From: Thermotogaceae bacterium
GTDB taxonomy: Bacteria; Thermotogota; Thermotogae; B21-G9; HyVt-16
Direction of reading: 5' to 3'
Assembly (NCBI GenBank): GCA_029981435.1
Contig: JARRBB010000002.1
Location: forward strand, 1,042-65,041
Length of the DNA: 64,000 nucleotides
Part shown: one piece after another, positions 23,669 to 28,402 of the stretch
Layout of the letters: every line of letters begins with the position of its first letter
Position numbering within the stretch: the stretch's first letter is position 1
Made by a program: the position numbers and the translations under genes
Notes under the pieces: model-generated
What the model was told of the DNA's origin: nothing
The model's database searches: none
What the model saw: only the letters and a program-made list of their open reading frames with translations

Positions 23669-23743
23669 TGGTGGGTGCGGCAGGGATTGAACCTGCGACC
23701 TCTTCCGCGTCAAGGAAGCGCTCTCCCGCTGAGCTACGCACCC
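23669..23743 (-). tRNA. tRNA-Val (anticodon GAC), 75 nt with encoded CCA
   Basis: The reverse complement is GGGTGCGTAGCTCAGCGGGAGAGCGCTTCCTTGACGCGGAAGAGGTCGCAGGTTCAATCCCTGCCGCACCCACCA. A full cloverleaf can be drawn by hand, with anticodon loop TTGACGC. Confidence 0.9.
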
Positions 23744-23801: not shown

Positions 23802-24848
23802 TTAAACCTTCTCAAAGTGAATTACATCTGTTCTTTTCCTGCTTCCAAAACCTGTTCCAACCTTTCGATTTAGATTTGTTATCATCTTTTTCATACAGGG
23901 AATACATCTCATGTCTGATTCAAAAACACATATTTTATTCGGATACAATTGATAAAGTGGTTTGTATTTAGCGGGTGTTAAATTGGGCATTATAACATTT
24001 GCACCTACTTTCAGCGCAAGTTCTCTACCATTTGGATGAATGGATCCCATAGCGGTTGTTGCTGGTATATTGCTGTCGGGTATTAGAAGTCTGGTCAAAG
24101 CTATCATCTTTAAGCACATTTTTAAATCACCTGCTTTTTCTTTTCCAAGCGGTGTATCCTGATGAGGTATAAAAGGTCCTATTCCAACCATATCAGCGTC
24201 CAATTCTCTTAAAAAAATCAGGTCCAATGCCAATTCTTTTGGGCCTTGGCCAGGCAATCCAACCATACAGCCTGCACCTGTTTCATATCCAAGTTTTTTA
24301 AGAGTTTTTAAATGTTTTACTCTCATCTCAAAAGAACTATCTGGATGTAAAAAGTTGTAAAGTTTTTCACTTGCGGTTTCGTGCCTCATTAAATATCTAT
24401 CAGCACCTGATTCTTTCCAAAGTTCATAATCCTTCTCTTCTCTTTCACCAAGGCTTAGTGTAACTGCTACATTCATTTTTTTTATACTTTTTACGATATC
24501 TGCTATCATTTCTGCGGTGTAATATGGATCTTCTCCAGATTGAAGTACTATAGTTTTTATACCACGCTCAGTTATTCTTTTTGCTCTTTCGATAATTTCT
24601 TCTTTTGTCATTCTGTATCTATCTATATTCTTATTTTCACTTCTTATACCACAATAAAGACAATGTCTTCTGCAATAATTTGAAAATTCTATTATCCCTC
24701 TCAAATGAACCTCATCACCAACATATCTTTTTCTAACTTCATCCGCAGCTTCGAAAAGTTTCTCAGTATAGTCATCTTTCTCAAGTAGATAAACTAATTC
24801 CTCATAAGTTACAGTATCAGGTTTTTGAACCAGTTTTTCTATCAACAA
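23802..24848 (-). CDS. hydE: [FeFe]-hydrogenase maturase HydE (radical SAM, BioB-like)
   Basis: The CxxxCxxC motif CRRHCLYCGIRSEN and a biotin-synthase-like TIM barrel of about 350 aa are present. It sits in a cluster with hydG. Confidence 0.85.
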   Translation of the reverse strand: MLIEKLVQKPDTVTYEELVYLLEKDDYTEKLFEAADEVRKRYVGDEVHLRGIIEFSNYCRRHCLYCGIRSENKNIDRYRMTKEEIIERAKRITERGIKTIVLQSGEDPYYTAEMIADIVKSIKKMNVAVTLSLGEREEKDYELWKESGADRYLMRHETASEKLYNFLHPDSSFEMRVKHLKTLKKLGYETGAGCMVGLPGQGPKELALDLIFLRELDADMVGIGPFIPHQDTPLGKEKAGDLKMCLKMIALTRLLIPDSNIPATTAMGSIHPNGRELALKVGANVIMPNLTPAKYKPLYQLYPNKICVFESDMRCIPCMKKMITNLNRKVGTGFGSRKRTDVIHFEKV

Positions 24849-25161
24849 AGTTTTGCACCACCTTCTCTAAAATTTCTAATATTTCAGAATTCAAAGTATC
24901 TAATCCTTCTGAGAAAACAACTATATCGTCTCTTTCATATACTTTGTTAGCCGGTAAGAATTTTTCTTCTCCTGCCTTCATTTCACTAATATACGCCAGT
25001 CTCTTTCCAATTCTTTTTGTCAGCCAGATTTTACAATCATATTTTTTAGCTATGTAAGCCAGTAATTTTTTTGCTTCAGAATCTGACATCTCTTTCACCT
25101 CTATCAAGGCGTTCCAACCCTTCCAAGATTGTTTTTCTATTCTTTTCATCAAATTTTTCAA
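24817..25161 (-). CDS. small conserved hypothetical protein between hydG and hydE
   Basis: A 90-114-aa ORF overlaps both neighbours. The start may be the internal Met at 25089. From memory, Thermotoga has a small ORF in the same position. Confidence 0.45.
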   Translation of the reverse strand: MKNLMKRIEKQSWKGWNALIEVKEMSDSEAKKLLAYIAKKYDCKIWLTKRIGKRLAYISEMKAGEEKFLPANKVYERDDIVVFSEGLDTLNSEILEILEKVVQNFVDRKTGSKT

Positions 25162-26488
25162 GCTCTTTGTTTATCAACTTCTCACCCAGTGCTTTTGTTT
25201 CAGGACTTGCATAATCATTTAGATATTCTTTCAACGTGAATAAAGCATTAGGTGTACAGAAACGTTTCACAAAACCAGGAATAGCGAACTCCATAAAATG
25301 TTCTCCCGTTCTTCCAGCTCTGTAGCATGCGGTACAGAAGGAAGGTATATAACCATCTTTCAACAATTCGTATATGACCTCGTCCAGACTTCTTCTGTCT
25401 CCAAGCAGGAATTGACTCTTCTTTATAACCTCTTCATCTGTAGATGAATATGAGCCTACTCCTATGCTTGACCCTGCGTCAATCTGTGAAACCCCAAGTT
25501 TTATAACTTCATCTCTGAGTTCAGGTCTTTCGCGTGCGGTCAATATCAAACCGGTGTAAGGAACAGATAACCTGAGTATCGCAACCAGCTTCTTGAACTC
25601 TTTATCGCTGACAGGTTTAGGTGGATTTTCAGAAAAAGGTGTACCAACTGCAGGCTCGATTCTCGGAAAGGAAATAGTATGAGGTCCAACTCCAAATCTT
25701 TCTTCAAGATGTATTGTATGATGCAACAGGCCCATGACTTCATATTTCCAGTCGTACAAACCAAATAAAGCACCTATTCCAACATCATCAATTCCTGCAA
25801 TCATTGCCCTGTCGAGCCCATAAAGTCTCCAGGCAAAATTTGATTTAGGTCCTCTTGGATGAAGTTTCCTGTATGTGGGCATGTGATAGGTTTCCTGAAA
25901 TATTTGAAAAGTACCAATTCCAACTTCTTTAATTATTTTGTATCCTTCAACTGTTTGAGGAGCGGCATTAACGTTTACTCTTCTTATCTCACCATTGTCG
26001 AACTTTGTGCTATAAATAAGATCTATAGTATGTGCTATAAATTCTGGGGAATACTTTGGATGCTCGCCGTATACTACTATAAGTCTTTTATGTCCTTTAC
26101 TAACAAGAGCTTTTACTTCTTCTTTCAACTCTTCATCTGTAAGTGTTTTTCTCAAAACCTCTCTGTTCGAGACTCTGAAACCGCAGTAAACACAATCATT
26201 ACAGCATTCATTACCAATGTATAGTGGCGCAAATAAAACAATTCTATTACCATAAATGATCGTTTTCAATTTACGTGCGGCTTCGAATATTTCTTCCAGA
26301 ATTTCTTCATCCTCAACATTTAGAAGTGTTGCCGTTTCTTCTGGTTCTAATCTCTGTTTAGAAAGAGATTTTGCCAGAATATCTCTAACTTTTTTAGGAT
26401 CTGGAGTAGCACTTTCAAGCTGTTTCTTTATCTTTTCTTCAGAAATAAAAGTTTTTTCATCTACCCTTTCTTTAGCAAATACAAACAT
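25076..26488 (-). CDS. hydG: [FeFe]-hydrogenase maturase HydG (radical SAM tyrosine lyase, ThiH-like)
   Basis: An N-terminal CxxxCxxC (CCNDCVYCGF) is present. The roughly 470-aa length and the C-terminal Cys-containing region (SFCTACYRAGRTGEHF) are typical of HydG rather than ThiH. Confidence 0.85.
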   Translation of the reverse strand: MFVFAKERVDEKTFISEEKIKKQLESATPDPKKVRDILAKSLSKQRLEPEETATLLNVEDEEILEEIFEAARKLKTIIYGNRIVLFAPLYIGNECCNDCVYCGFRVSNREVLRKTLTDEELKEEVKALVSKGHKRLIVVYGEHPKYSPEFIAHTIDLIYSTKFDNGEIRRVNVNAAPQTVEGYKIIKEVGIGTFQIFQETYHMPTYRKLHPRGPKSNFAWRLYGLDRAMIAGIDDVGIGALFGLYDWKYEVMGLLHHTIHLEERFGVGPHTISFPRIEPAVGTPFSENPPKPVSDKEFKKLVAILRLSVPYTGLILTARERPELRDEVIKLGVSQIDAGSSIGVGSYSSTDEEVIKKSQFLLGDRRSLDEVIYELLKDGYIPSFCTACYRAGRTGEHFMEFAIPGFVKRFCTPNALFTLKEYLNDYASPETKALGEKLINKELEKFDEKNRKTILEGLERLDRGERDVRF

Positions 26489-26501
26489 TATCTCACCACC
26501 C

Positions 26502-26741
26502 TTAACGTTTTATCATGATCGATTTGACACGTATCCCCTTTATTTGTCCTAATTTTCCACTAAAAGCACCCATCGTATCGTTATCAGCTTTGATAATTAA
26601 AATTATTATTCCAACATCTTCTTCCTTGACTGGATACCCTACTCTCAATTCAATGTATTTAGCGTACTGATGGAGTAGTTCATTCACCTCACGATATACA
26701 GCTTCTCTGTTCTCTACAAGGATATTCAAAAGATAGTACAA
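26502..26741 (-). CDS. putative iron-only hydrogenase system regulator (small ACT/NikR-C-like protein, TM1266-type)
   Basis: A 79-aa protein is encoded as the first gene of the hydG/hydE operon. The start is TTG. Confidence 0.6.
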   Translation of the reverse strand: MYYLLNILVENREAVYREVNELLHQYAKYIELRVGYPVKEEDVGIIILIIKADNDTMGAFSGKLGQIKGIRVKSIMIKR

Positions 26742-26745
26742 AAAA

Positions 26746-26779
26746 ATCCCCTCCCTTTTTCTACACCAAGGGAGGGGAT
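26746..26779 (-). terminator. intrinsic terminator / ribosome-binding-site sequestering hairpin in the 5' leader of the hyd maturase operon
   Basis: The minus-strand RNA reads AUCCCCUCCCUU-GGUGUAGAAA-AAGGGAGGGGAU-UUUUUUUG. The 12-bp perfect stem contains the GGAGG ribosome-binding site, and its U7 tract overlaps the UUG start. Confidence 0.7.
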
Positions 26780-26835
26780 CATAATATCTGTTACTACTTC
26801 TTTATATAATGAAAGCCACTTATTTCTCATTTACT

Positions 26836-26855
26836 GATCCCTCTCCCTTGGTGTC
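26836..26855 (-). promoter_or_regulatory. upstream leader element complementary to the 5' arm of the terminator (candidate antiterminator strand)
   Basis: Minus-strand GACACCAAGGGAGAGGGAUC can pair with GAUCCCCUCCCUUGGUGUAG (26761-26780) over about 18 bp with one bulge. Confidence 0.5.
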
Positions 26856-26976
26856 AGGTTTTTTAACCCTTCACCTCAGGAATTAGAGAAAAAATTCACA
26901 ACTCCATTTTAAATTATATCATATCCTTATTTTATATAAAAAGAATTTAACCTACACTAAAAATTCCTGATATAAT

Positions 26977-27005
26977 TTGACATTTCAATACAAAATGACT
27001 ATAAT
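26977..27005 (+). promoter_or_regulatory. consensus sigma-A promoter (TTGACA-17 nt-TATAAT) for the + strand gene at 27028
   Basis: TTGACA at 26977-26982 and TATAAT at 27000-27005 with a 17-nt spacer. Confidence 0.7.
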
Positions 27006-27027
27006 TATGGTCAGAGGTGATTGGAAC

Positions 27028-27318
27028 TTGAAAATATCAGATTTGGAATTCTATTCGTTAGCCGAGGCAAAAAAGAATTTTGCAAAGGTTGTGAAAAAAT
27101 CCGAAACAAATGATGTAGTCATAACCAGAAATGGTAAGCCCTCAGTAGTAATGGTTAACTATTCCAAATATGTAAAATTAATGGATTTCATATCTAATGT
27201 GTATGAACTTTATTTAATTGATGTTGGTGAGAAAGAATTTCCTCTAATAAAGGATATTAAAAAAATCATATTTGAATCAAGTGAGGAGGTAAGTGAAGAT
27301 GGCACAGGTACTTCTTGA
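27028..27318 (+). CDS. Phd/YefM-family antitoxin-like protein (solo)
   Basis: LAEAKKNFAKVVKKSETNDVVITRNGKPSVVMVNYSKY is the Phd/YefM N-terminal fold. The ORF-track start at 26977 overlaps the promoter. A TTG at 27028 follows GGTGA. No toxin gene follows. Confidence 0.55.
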   Translation: MKISDLEFYSLAEAKKNFAKVVKKSETNDVVITRNGKPSVVMVNYSKYVKLMDFISNVYELYLIDVGEKEFPLIKDIKKIIFESSEEVSEDGTGTS

Positions 27319-28402
27319 AAATGTTACAAAGATCTATGATAACAAGGTGGTCGCTGTTAAAGATGCAAATTTAGTTGTTGAAGATAAGGAGTTCGTGGTT
27401 CTTCTTGGACCATCTGGCTGTGGAAAAACTACAACTCTCAGGATGATAGCAGGATTAGAAGAAATAACAAAAGGTACTATCAAGATTGATGGAAGAGTTG
27501 TAAACGATGTTGAACCAAAGGACAGAGACATTGCTATGGTTTTCCAGAACTACGCATTGTATCCTCATATGACGGTTTATCAAAATATGGCTTTTGGTTT
27601 AAAACTAAGGAAGTATCCTAAAGACGAGATTGATAGAAGAGTAAAAGAAGCCGCAAAAATACTTGGAATAGAAGAGCTTCTTGACAGAAAACCTAAACAG
27701 CTTTCAGGTGGTCAAAGACAAAGGGTGGCAGTTGGAAGAGCCATTGTTAGAAATCCTAAAGTTTTCTTGTTCGATGAACCACTTTCGAACCTCGATGCAA
27801 AGTTAAGAGTGCAGATGAGAGCAGAACTTAAAAAATTACACAGTAGACTACAGGCTACCATTGTTTATGTTACGCATGATCAGGTTGAAGCAATGACTAT
27901 GGCAGATAAAATAGTCATAATGAAAGACGGGGTCATTCAGCAAATTGGTGACCCACATCAGATATACAACAAACCAGCTAATATTTTCGTTGCTGGTTTC
28001 ATTGGGAGTCCTGCTATGAACTTCATAAAAGCAAAAATCGTTAGAGGTGAAGGTGGTCTTTGGGTACAGGCAAGCGGATTCAAAGTCAAGTTAGTAAAAG
28101 AACACGAAGATTTGTTAGCAAACTATGTAGATAAAGATGTTATTTTCGGGATAAGACCTGAGAATGTATTTGATAAAGTTTTTGCGCTCGCACCAAGTTC
28201 TGAAAATACAATATCTGCACAAGTAGATATTGTCGAACCATTAGGAAATGCGACAATCCTTCATTTAAGATCTGGTGAAGATTCTATAGTAGCCAGTGTT
28301 GATCCAAGAACTAAAGCGAAAGAAGGAATGGAAATGGACGTTGTATTCGATATGTCAACAATTCATATTTTTGATCCTGAAACTGAAAAGGCCATTATCT
28401 AA
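27299..28402 (+). CDS. sugar ABC transporter ATP-binding protein (MalK/MsmX/UgpC family, CUT1 energiser)
   Basis: Walker A GPSGCGKTT, signature LSGGQRQR, Walker B LFDEPLSNLD and a C-terminal TOBE/regulatory domain are present. The ATG at 27299 follows GAGGAGG. Confidence 0.9.
   Translation: MAQVLLENVTKIYDNKVVAVKDANLVVEDKEFVVLLGPSGCGKTTTLRMIAGLEEITKGTIKIDGRVVNDVEPKDRDIAMVFQNYALYPHMTVYQNMAFGLKLRKYPKDEIDRRVKEAAKILGIEELLDRKPKQLSGGQRQRVAVGRAIVRNPKVFLFDEPLSNLDAKLRVQMRAELKKLHSRLQATIVYVTHDQVEAMTMADKIVIMKDGVIQQIGDPHQIYNKPANIFVAGFIGSPAMNFIKAKIVRGEGGLWVQASGFKVKLVKEHEDLLANYVDKDVIFGIRPENVFDKVFALAPSSENTISAQVDIVEPLGNATILHLRSGEDSIVASVDPRTKAKEGMEMDVVFDMSTIHIFDPETEKAII

Follow-up and report, generated by a model that had tools for sequence, protein, structure and literature searches.

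The DNA examined here is a 64,000-nucleotide (nt) stretch from a Thermotogaceae bacterium (contig JARRBB010000002.1; hereafter the window, which means the whole 64 kb), and our subject is the leader of an operon of four open reading frames (ORFs) on its minus strand (26741..23802). The first gene (26502..26741) encodes a TM1266-family, ACT-like protein of 79 amino acids (aa), which scores above the curated cut-offs of TIGR03959 (96 bits) and PF21699 (95 bits), is homologous to the structural-genomics structure PDB 2NZC (E = 2e-29) and carries the annotation "putative iron-only hydrogenase system regulator", the identity that an earlier note on this DNA had given it. It is followed by the genes for HydG (25076..26488; TIGR03955, 532 bits) and, in last place, HydE (23802..24848; TIGR03956, 386 bits), both radical-SAM H-cluster maturases. 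The leader lies in a gap of 235 nt, a divergent promoter region, between the operon and its plus-strand neighbour.

The leader ends in an intrinsic terminator (26740..26779, minus strand), a perfect 12-base-pair (bp) stem with a 10-nt loop and a run of seven U residues (U7). Its arms, AUCCCCUCCCUU (26779..26768) and AAGGGAGGGGAU (26757..26746), are complementary at 12 of 12 positions, as the earlier note had read them; the U tract occupies 26746..26740, its first U closes the stem, and the stem energy is -22 kcal/mol. The 3' arm holds the Shine-Dalgarno sequence (GGAGGGG, 26753..26747) and the U tract runs over the TTG start codon (26741..26739), again as that note had it. The alignments with homologues and with 2NZC, which begin at residue 2, support this start. 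A generic terminator scan overlooked the hairpin, presumably because it allows loops of at most 8 nt. Equivalent terminators are present in all 16 of the Thermotogota leaders tested.

Upstream of the terminator stands a conserved hairpin (26838..26889, core 26882..26843, minus strand), recognized by folding, covariance models and covariation, which we will call the sensor hairpin or anti-antiterminator. The core reads UUCCU-GA-GGUG-AA-(GGGUU-AAAA-AACCU)-GA-CACC-AA-GGGAG, and can be divided into the helices P1 (UUCCU/GGGAG), P2 (GGUG/CACC) and P3 (GGGUU-AAAA-AACCU), separated by two symmetric 2x2 purine loops, GA/AA between P1 and P2 and AA/GA between P2 and P3. A lower extension pairs UCUCU (26889..26885) with AGGGA (26842..26838). 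Read 5' to 3', both strands of the hairpin give CUGA-N4-RAGG, a pseudo-two-fold symmetry. Folding of the minus-strand leader, a check proposed in the earlier note, placed hairpin and terminator together in the minimum-energy structure, with z = -4.5 for the 181-nt leader against shuffled sequences. The window hairpin scores 65 bits with covariance model R1, built on ten Thermotogota loci, and 46.7 bits (E about 1e-10) with model R2; no other copy of the motif was found in the window, where the next match in the R2 scan reached only 11.5 bits.

The helices are kept by compensatory change. Pairing amounts to 99% in an alignment of 10 sequences and to 88% in one of 61, in which 7 pairs have changed on both sides (e.g., 18-42 as G-C or A-U, 12-48 as C-G or U-A, 11-49 as A-U or U-A, and 23-37 as G.U, A-U or G-C). 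The covariation score of the 61 sequences is 0.216, compared with 0.131 after shuffling (0 of 500) and 0.04-0.12 when the partners are slid, and covariation is present in P1, P2 and P3 alike. The internal-loop purines G15, A44, A45 and G38 are nearly invariant.

The 3' half of the sensor hairpin has a second partner. The earlier note had pointed to a near-complement at 26836-26855 able to pair over about 18 bp, and the fold agrees with it: the antiterminator 5' strand GACACCAAGGGAGAGGGAUC (26836..26855, minus strand), which overlaps this half of the hairpin, pairs with the 3' strand GAUCCCCUCCCUUGGUGU (26763..26780, minus strand), which overlaps the 5' arm and loop of the terminator, through 12 + 6 = 18 bp across one bulge. 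A repeat finder matched the upstream element to 26777..26763 over 15 nt at 93% complementarity. In all Thermotogota leaders examined, the complementarity of antiterminator and terminator is maintained through compensatory changes, examples being CACCGAGG with CUCGGU or CCGGUG (loci L007, L008 and L205) and CAUCAAAGG with CCUUUGA (L056).

The leader is composed of three mutually exclusive structures, namely the anti-antiterminator, the antiterminator and the terminator. The alternative of terminator and antiterminator proposed in the earlier note has stood, being conserved and covarying, but not as a device of two structures, since the third, the sensor hairpin, had been overlooked. We consider it highly probable that this three-structure attenuator is real and regulatory.

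Folding energetics and a proposed mechanism

Energies were computed on leaders cut just before the 3' arm of the terminator, which represents the moment of decision. The window leader then reaches -47.9 kcal/mol in the antiterminator state versus -33.8 kcal/mol with the sensor hairpin enforced. Among the 16 Thermotogota leaders, the free minimum-energy fold lacks the hairpin in 15 at 37 C and in all at 70 C, and enforcing it costs 3.5-16.5 kcal/mol at the lower temperature and 2.5-8.4 kcal/mol at the higher. Folding predicts read-through by default, and therefore some factor must stabilise the hairpin.

The quasi-symmetric hairpin (26882..26843) would be transcribed first. Left unheld, its 3' strand would be captured by the more stable 18-bp antiterminator, formed with 26780..26763, which would block the terminator and let polymerase enter the TM1266-HydG-HydE operon with the ribosome-binding site free. 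Once a factor locked the hairpin, no antiterminator could form, and the 12-bp terminator with its U7 would stop transcription at the start codon; any residual read-through transcript made in this OFF state would have its ribosome-binding site buried. The factor would most likely be the operon's own first product, an oligomeric ACT-fold protein of the TM1266 family, probably loaded with a small effector, and the outcome would be negative autoregulation of H-cluster maturase synthesis. Termination in vivo, stabilisation of the hairpin by binding and the role of TM1266 as binder are our inferences. Taken as a whole, the reading of the window leader as a factor-dependent transcription attenuator that is also a translational switch, with its own TM1266 product as the likeliest lock, is one on which our confidence is evenly balanced.

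The translational side of this switch, which the earlier note had raised, is borne out by the predicted exposure of the Shine-Dalgarno sequence: the unpaired fraction is 0% with hairpin and terminator formed, and blocking the hairpin's 5' strand raises it to 36%. That the terminator abuts the start codon holds for the window and for L001, L003, L056 and L206-L208, but not for Fervidobacterium, whose leaders have a separate ribosome-binding site 35-110 nt beyond the terminator. Termination directly at the start codon is thus lineage-specific across the leaders compared.

The wiring also differs between phyla. In Thermotogota, the 3' strand of the hairpin is the partner of the terminator's 5' arm. 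In Verrucomicrobiota, it is the hairpin's 5' strand, CUGCGGCG, that pairs with the 5' arm, CGCCGCAG, of the terminator GCUCCGCCGCAG-AAAU-GCGGCGGAGC-U8. A terminator is lacking from most Cloacimonadota leaders, and in these both hairpin strands have partners downstream, next to the ribosome-binding site. In these terminator-less leaders, exposure of the ribosome-binding site did not differ significantly between the hairpin enforced and its 5' strand blocked (Wilcoxon p = 0.29); the blocked-strand state is the wrong alternative for this phylum, because the unconstrained fold pairs both hairpin strands downstream. Across these arrangements the predicted logic is constant, a folded hairpin meaning expression off.

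Distribution of the motif and the genes behind it

A genome scan for HydG gave 80 loci; a TM1266-family gene is present at 72, and for 71 of these the sequence upstream was available. The earlier note had named conservation upstream of orthologous hyd operons as a test that could refute its proposal, and the arrangement recurs in every Thermotogota relative examined: the hairpin, followed by the antiterminator/terminator pair, is present at all Thermotogota HydG loci. Model R1 gave some 40 further, weak matches, all on the coding strand and 60-130 nt 5' of the TM1266 gene, spread over Cloacimonadota, Verrucomicrobiota/Kiritimatiellales and others, and the remaining loci were assigned by eye. 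Altogether the motif precedes the TM1266 gene or its operon at about 69 of the 71 evaluable HydG loci; two Pontiella loci (L077 and L078) are left out of the assignment to variants. The distance from the motif to the start codon is 48-211 nt.

Several variants can be distinguished. That of Cloacimonadota reads ACCUG(A/C)GAUGRGRGA...YCYGNCAUCAAGGG, that of Verrucomicrobiota, with a 3-bp P2, CUGCGGCRAGGGG...CCCUGACCCAAGGC, and that of Fermentibacteria CUGAGGUAAGGG...CCUGAUCCGGGGC. In Firmicutes the hairpin keeps its architecture and takes the form CUGA - CGYC - RA - AAN...NUU - GM - GRCG - GA - AG and, in six sequences including Monoglobus, is 96% paired, with 5 of 9 pairs changed on both sides. 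R2, the class A model, misses the Verrucomicrobiota, Fermentibacteria and Firmicutes variants, which were found by regular expression and by eye.

Metagenomes were scanned from the motif's side with a degenerate pattern, the matches being scored with R2 and called strong at 44 bits or more. The result was cleanly bimodal. Of the 58 matches at or above this threshold, 56 are followed by a TM1266 gene, which in 55 cases is no more than about 215 nt away and in one (L173) comes behind a hydA-like gene; the other two are cut short by a contig edge. The remaining matches score at most 30 bits and lie in GC-rich coding sequence, with L094, which is the same as L161, between the two groups at 36.6 bits. 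Four further Thermotogota loci with the full arrangement come from Pseudothermotoga profunda, Marinitoga, Thermosipho atlanticus and a relative with about 99% identity (L208).

The gene order behind the motif varies. TM1266-hydG, with or without hydE, stands beside hydE-TM1266-hydG (L002) and a hydA-like gene followed by TM1266-hydG (L005 and L173). On a 2.3-Mb metagenome contig (L157, motif at 848-877), the TM1266 gene is followed, where hydG would stand, by an ORF with a CarboxypepD_reg-like N terminus, a domain with which many TonB-dependent receptors begin. In Oscillospiraceae (Firmicutes; L203, L209-L214 and L217-L220), the TM1266-family gene heads an operon for an ABC transporter of the NMT1/phosphonate-binding type and no hyd genes were found nearby.

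The motif thus appears, on comparative grounds, to track the TM1266-family gene rather than the hyd genes, and to do so in at least five bacterial phyla. The switch for hydG/hydE that the earlier note proposed does precede the TM1266-HydG-HydE operon, but it is not specific to hyd, as the motif also precedes TM1266 operons without hyd genes. The family name "iron-only hydrogenase system regulator" is too narrow, because the Firmicutes members head ABC transporter operons that lack hyd genes.

Two of the Firmicutes loci also carry known riboswitches. In L218, a c-di-GMP-I riboswitch (1489-1577, 63 bits) shares an intergenic region with the variant hairpin, about 220 nt 5' of it, and riboswitch and hairpin may form a tandem arrangement before the TM1266-family gene and ABC transporter. 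In L203 (Vescimonas), a THF riboswitch (65-168, 83.5 bits) precedes the S component of a folate-family ECF transporter and is unrelated to the finding.

Candidate binders and rival explanations

The element is a true and conserved attenuator, mechanistically of an established type, and the RNA motif that serves as its sensor is phylogenetically widespread and apparently undescribed. Rfam 15 showed no family at the leader, either at a permissive E-value (window leader and Firmicutes loci) or at the gathering score (14 HydG loci, L161, L157 and L012). The PyrR binding site RF00515, among the top though non-significant matches to the window leader, scored 24.4 bits where the gathering score is 54 (E = 0.63), a resemblance in architecture only, and we dismissed this and the weak matches to PyrG, L10-leader and LhrC as terminator or architecture noise. 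The earlier note knew of no such mechanism for hydG/hydE; our literature search found nothing on the hairpin RNA or on the function of TM1266, with the possible exception of subscription-only papers.

Among known systems, the Bacillus pyr attenuator is close in layout. The window leader has the marks of the PyrR type, that is, a terminator within the leader, an antiterminator maintained by compensation and an upstream hairpin holding the antiterminator's 5' strand, and in both systems anti-antiterminator (in pyr, the binding loop), antiterminator and terminator overlap. PyrR acts on the anti-antiterminator to cause termination and is encoded by the first gene, for which the first gene of the window is the candidate equivalent. 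However, PyrR has a PRTase fold, whereas the candidate here is an ACT/NikR-C-like protein of 80 aa, and the window hairpin, unlike the PyrR site, is pseudo-symmetric with two 2x2 purine loops. LicT and SacY (BglG family) provide another precedent, since their CAT domain reads as a homodimer the RAT, a short, quasi-symmetric hairpin with two internal loops that overlaps a terminator; there, however, binding stabilises the antiterminator (ON), whereas the hairpin here competes with it (OFF), the protein fold is unrelated, and there is no PTS link here. TRAP is comparable as a small, oligomeric, ligand-activated RNA binder that prevents an antiterminator and, by sequestering the ribosome-binding site, blocks translation as well, but its 11-mer ring binds 11 single-stranded (G/U)AG repeats rather than a structured hairpin, and its fold differs.

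We favour the TM1266-family protein as the hairpin-binding factor, probably together with an effector and in PyrR-like autoregulation, at about even odds. The reason is that the motif goes with the TM1266 gene and not with the hyd genes, a pattern that matches autoregulatory leaders such as that of PyrR, whose gene likewise opens its operon. No DNA-binding domain is present in the TM1266-family protein. An AlphaFold2 model of the protein (pLDDT 93.8) is closest to 2NZC and to the tetrameric C-terminal domain of NikR, an ACT-like metal-binding domain, though TM1266 lacks the ribbon-helix-helix DNA-binding domain of NikR itself; the model also resembles ACT domains, the ribosome-contacting ACT/RRM domain of RelA and ribosomal protein S6, the last two being ferredoxin-like folds that contact RNA. 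Subtypes of RNA and protein change together, LRVGYP proteins going with a 4-bp P2 and ARMGVP proteins with a 3-bp P2, and His24 is invariant in the LRVGYP subgroup only.

Several points weigh against binding by TM1266. At L012 hydG follows the motif directly, the 4 kb examined containing no TM1266 gene, and L215 and L216 have a TM1266 gene and a short leader with no motif. The L161/L094 match (384-441, 36.6 bits) lies in the 5' untranslated region (UTR) of an operon for an ECF S-component and a class-V aminotransferase, and no TM1266 gene was found within 1.4 kb of it; this locus is either a member of the motif family without the protein or a different type of leader. The joint change of RNA and protein subtypes may be mere phylogeny, and the protein is not strikingly basic. 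Riboswitches for small molecules just as typically combine conserved purine-rich internal loops with varied expression platforms. The full-length leader folds at equilibrium as hairpin plus terminator, with no factor needed, and the argument for a default ON state therefore rests on co-transcriptional kinetics. Finally, the support is comparative or thermodynamic throughout. As to L161/L094 itself, its motif-like hairpin has a terminator downstream and its aminotransferase is cysteine-desulfurase-like; a TPP riboswitch was considered there, and Rfam gave no such match.

The same attenuator could have as its sensor the aptamer of an OFF-riboswitch for a small molecule or ion from H-cluster, sulfur or iron metabolism, TM1266 being merely the gene most often regulated. 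A short hairpin in 5' UTRs with covarying helices and two highly conserved purine-rich internal loops would suit this, as would the joining of one sensor to transcriptional and translational platforms across lineages, a riboswitch hallmark, and the two loci just described, L012 and L161, where the motif or its candidate stands without an adjacent TM1266 gene. Hairpin aptamers with internal loops exist, as in the NMT1/xanthine and THF-II riboswitches. Like these small OFF riboswitches (the latter the THF-II/folE motif), the motif is a conserved hairpin of about 45-55 nt in which internal loops alternate with stems that covary, and it acts with a terminator or by occluding the ribosome-binding site. 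The associated genes could have sulfur or cysteine in common, as HydG uses cysteine, the ABC transporters have NMT1/SsuA-like binding proteins and the aminotransferase is desulfurase-like. However, the motif goes with a small regulator gene and not with a coherent metabolic pathway: the TM1266-family gene is the sole gene common to all operon types (hyd, hydA-first, ABC transporter and L157), a pattern typical of autoregulatory protein-binding leaders and not of metabolite riboswitches, and every strong match has that gene downstream, contig-end cases excepted. The pseudo-two-fold symmetry suggests an oligomeric protein partner, and none of the described Rfam 15 classes matched in the window leader, 14 HydG loci or 6 Firmicutes loci. 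We regard a riboswitch as less likely than TM1266, though it is the main and a serious rival.

The hairpin might instead serve another trans-acting factor, such as an RNA-binding, ribosomal or K-turn-type protein or a small RNA, or work free of ligand as a kinetic or temperature attenuator or as an element of stability or processing. The global folds of the leader are nearly iso-energetic at 70 C (-19.5 versus -18.1 kcal/mol), so temperature or polymerase speed could tip the balance, and proteins and metals generically bind to tandem G.A/A.A loops. Neither a general factor nor a thermometer would be expected to co-occur so strictly with one small gene family in five phyla, mesophiles included, the motif was not found elsewhere in the window, and the 3-nt bulge that a K-turn requires is missing; this explanation seems to us quite improbable. 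A canonical hairpin with U7 in a divergent intergenic region could also be a plain constitutive terminator, or an insulator separating the divergent genes, its complementarity being incidental. The element sits, however, between the promoter-like site of the operon and its start codon, and complementarity and upstream hairpin are conserved with compensatory changes across phyla; moreover, the neighbour (26977..27318) is on the plus strand, so no minus-strand gene lies upstream to own the terminator, as the earlier note had also stated. A terminator of an upstream gene was rejected on the latter ground, and we give the constitutive terminator in general very little credence. Least credible of all is attenuation by a ribosome on a leader peptide. 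The 34-codon ORF from which the earlier note built this idea exists (26830..26726), has a purine-rich stretch 5' of it and traverses the terminator, but the role does not follow: L208, with a TM1266 protein about 99% identical, has 4 codons and an unrelated linker, L103 and L201 (about 89% identical) have 6 codons and a 24-nt deletion, and across Thermotogota the linker ranges from about 20 to 100 nt, with no common frame and no possible alignment. No protein family matched the ORF, and leader-peptide attenuation was rejected because even the closest relatives do not conserve the ORF.

Promoter, neighbouring genes and significance

A promoter-like site (26913..26940, minus strand) with TTTATA, a 16-nt spacer and TATAAT, and with a TG-extended -10 box, matches at 10 of 12 positions and keeps its place relative to the leader in L103 and L208; transcription would start near 26906. 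Between the -10 box and the sensor hairpin lies a Rex-operator-like box, TTGTGAATTTTTTCTCTA (26884..26901, minus strand), scored against TTGTGAA-N4-TTCACAA, which we take to be the Rex operator consensus. It is the best match to that sequence in the window and the sole one with 2 mismatches, while sites with at most 3 mismatches number 18, compared with 10.4 expected. Boxes of this kind are equivalently placed in Fervidobacterium and Thermosipho relatives. In C. thermocellum, hydG and a TM1266-like gene are listed under Rex control (PMC8457756). The putative Rex box suggests redox-dependent control of initiation on top of the attenuator.

Between hydG and hydE, and overlapping both, the operon contains an ORF of 114 aa (24817..25161, minus strand), to which no Pfam or NCBIfam family matched. 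It is weakly conserved in Thermotogota, with counterparts of 29-38% identity at the same place in L088, L129, L174, L188 and L194 (tblastn), and may encode an accessory maturation protein not yet characterised. A tRNA-Val (GAC) gene (23669-23743, minus strand) lies about 60 nt past the hydE stop codon. Divergent from the operon are a Phd/YefM-family antitoxin gene, the plus-strand neighbour mentioned above, and a MalK-like ABC ATPase gene (27293..28402, plus strand), whose start is overlapped by the antitoxin gene. No toxin gene was noticed beside the antitoxin gene, and the same pair adjoins the hyd operon in L201 and L208.

Essentially nothing is known of the control of HydG and HydE synthesis beyond Rex-type redox control, and the annotation of TM1266 came with no mechanism. 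The leader offers a concrete one, a 45-nt sensor RNA with defined ON and OFF structures, in cultivable Thermosipho, Fervidobacterium, Pseudothermotoga and Marinitoga. It also points to a family of cis-regulatory RNAs, apparently not described before, that spans at least five phyla and has members in abundant lineages of anaerobic digesters and of the human gut.

A broader proposal is that the ACT-fold proteins of the TM1266 family (PF21699) are an unrecognised class of ligand-responsive RNA-binding attenuation proteins, whose oligomers would clamp the CUGA-N4-RAGG hairpin and autoregulate operons for hyd maturases and ABC transporters; we put this forward tentatively, with doubt slightly outweighing belief. 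If true, attenuation by termination or by occlusion of the ribosome-binding site would govern the hyd operons of Thermotogota, Cloacimonadota, Verrucomicrobiota and Fermentibacteria, and the ABC transporter operons of gut Firmicutes would be under the same autoregulation. A function would then be assigned both to a family of "putative regulators" known only from a structural-genomics structure of 2006 and to an undescribed, widespread RNA motif. Should TM1266 bind the hairpin, this would be a new RNA-binding use of the ACT fold; should a metabolite do so, it would define a riboswitch class not seen before and add a signal to those of hydrogen metabolism. Either outcome would be useful for engineering hydrogenase expression.

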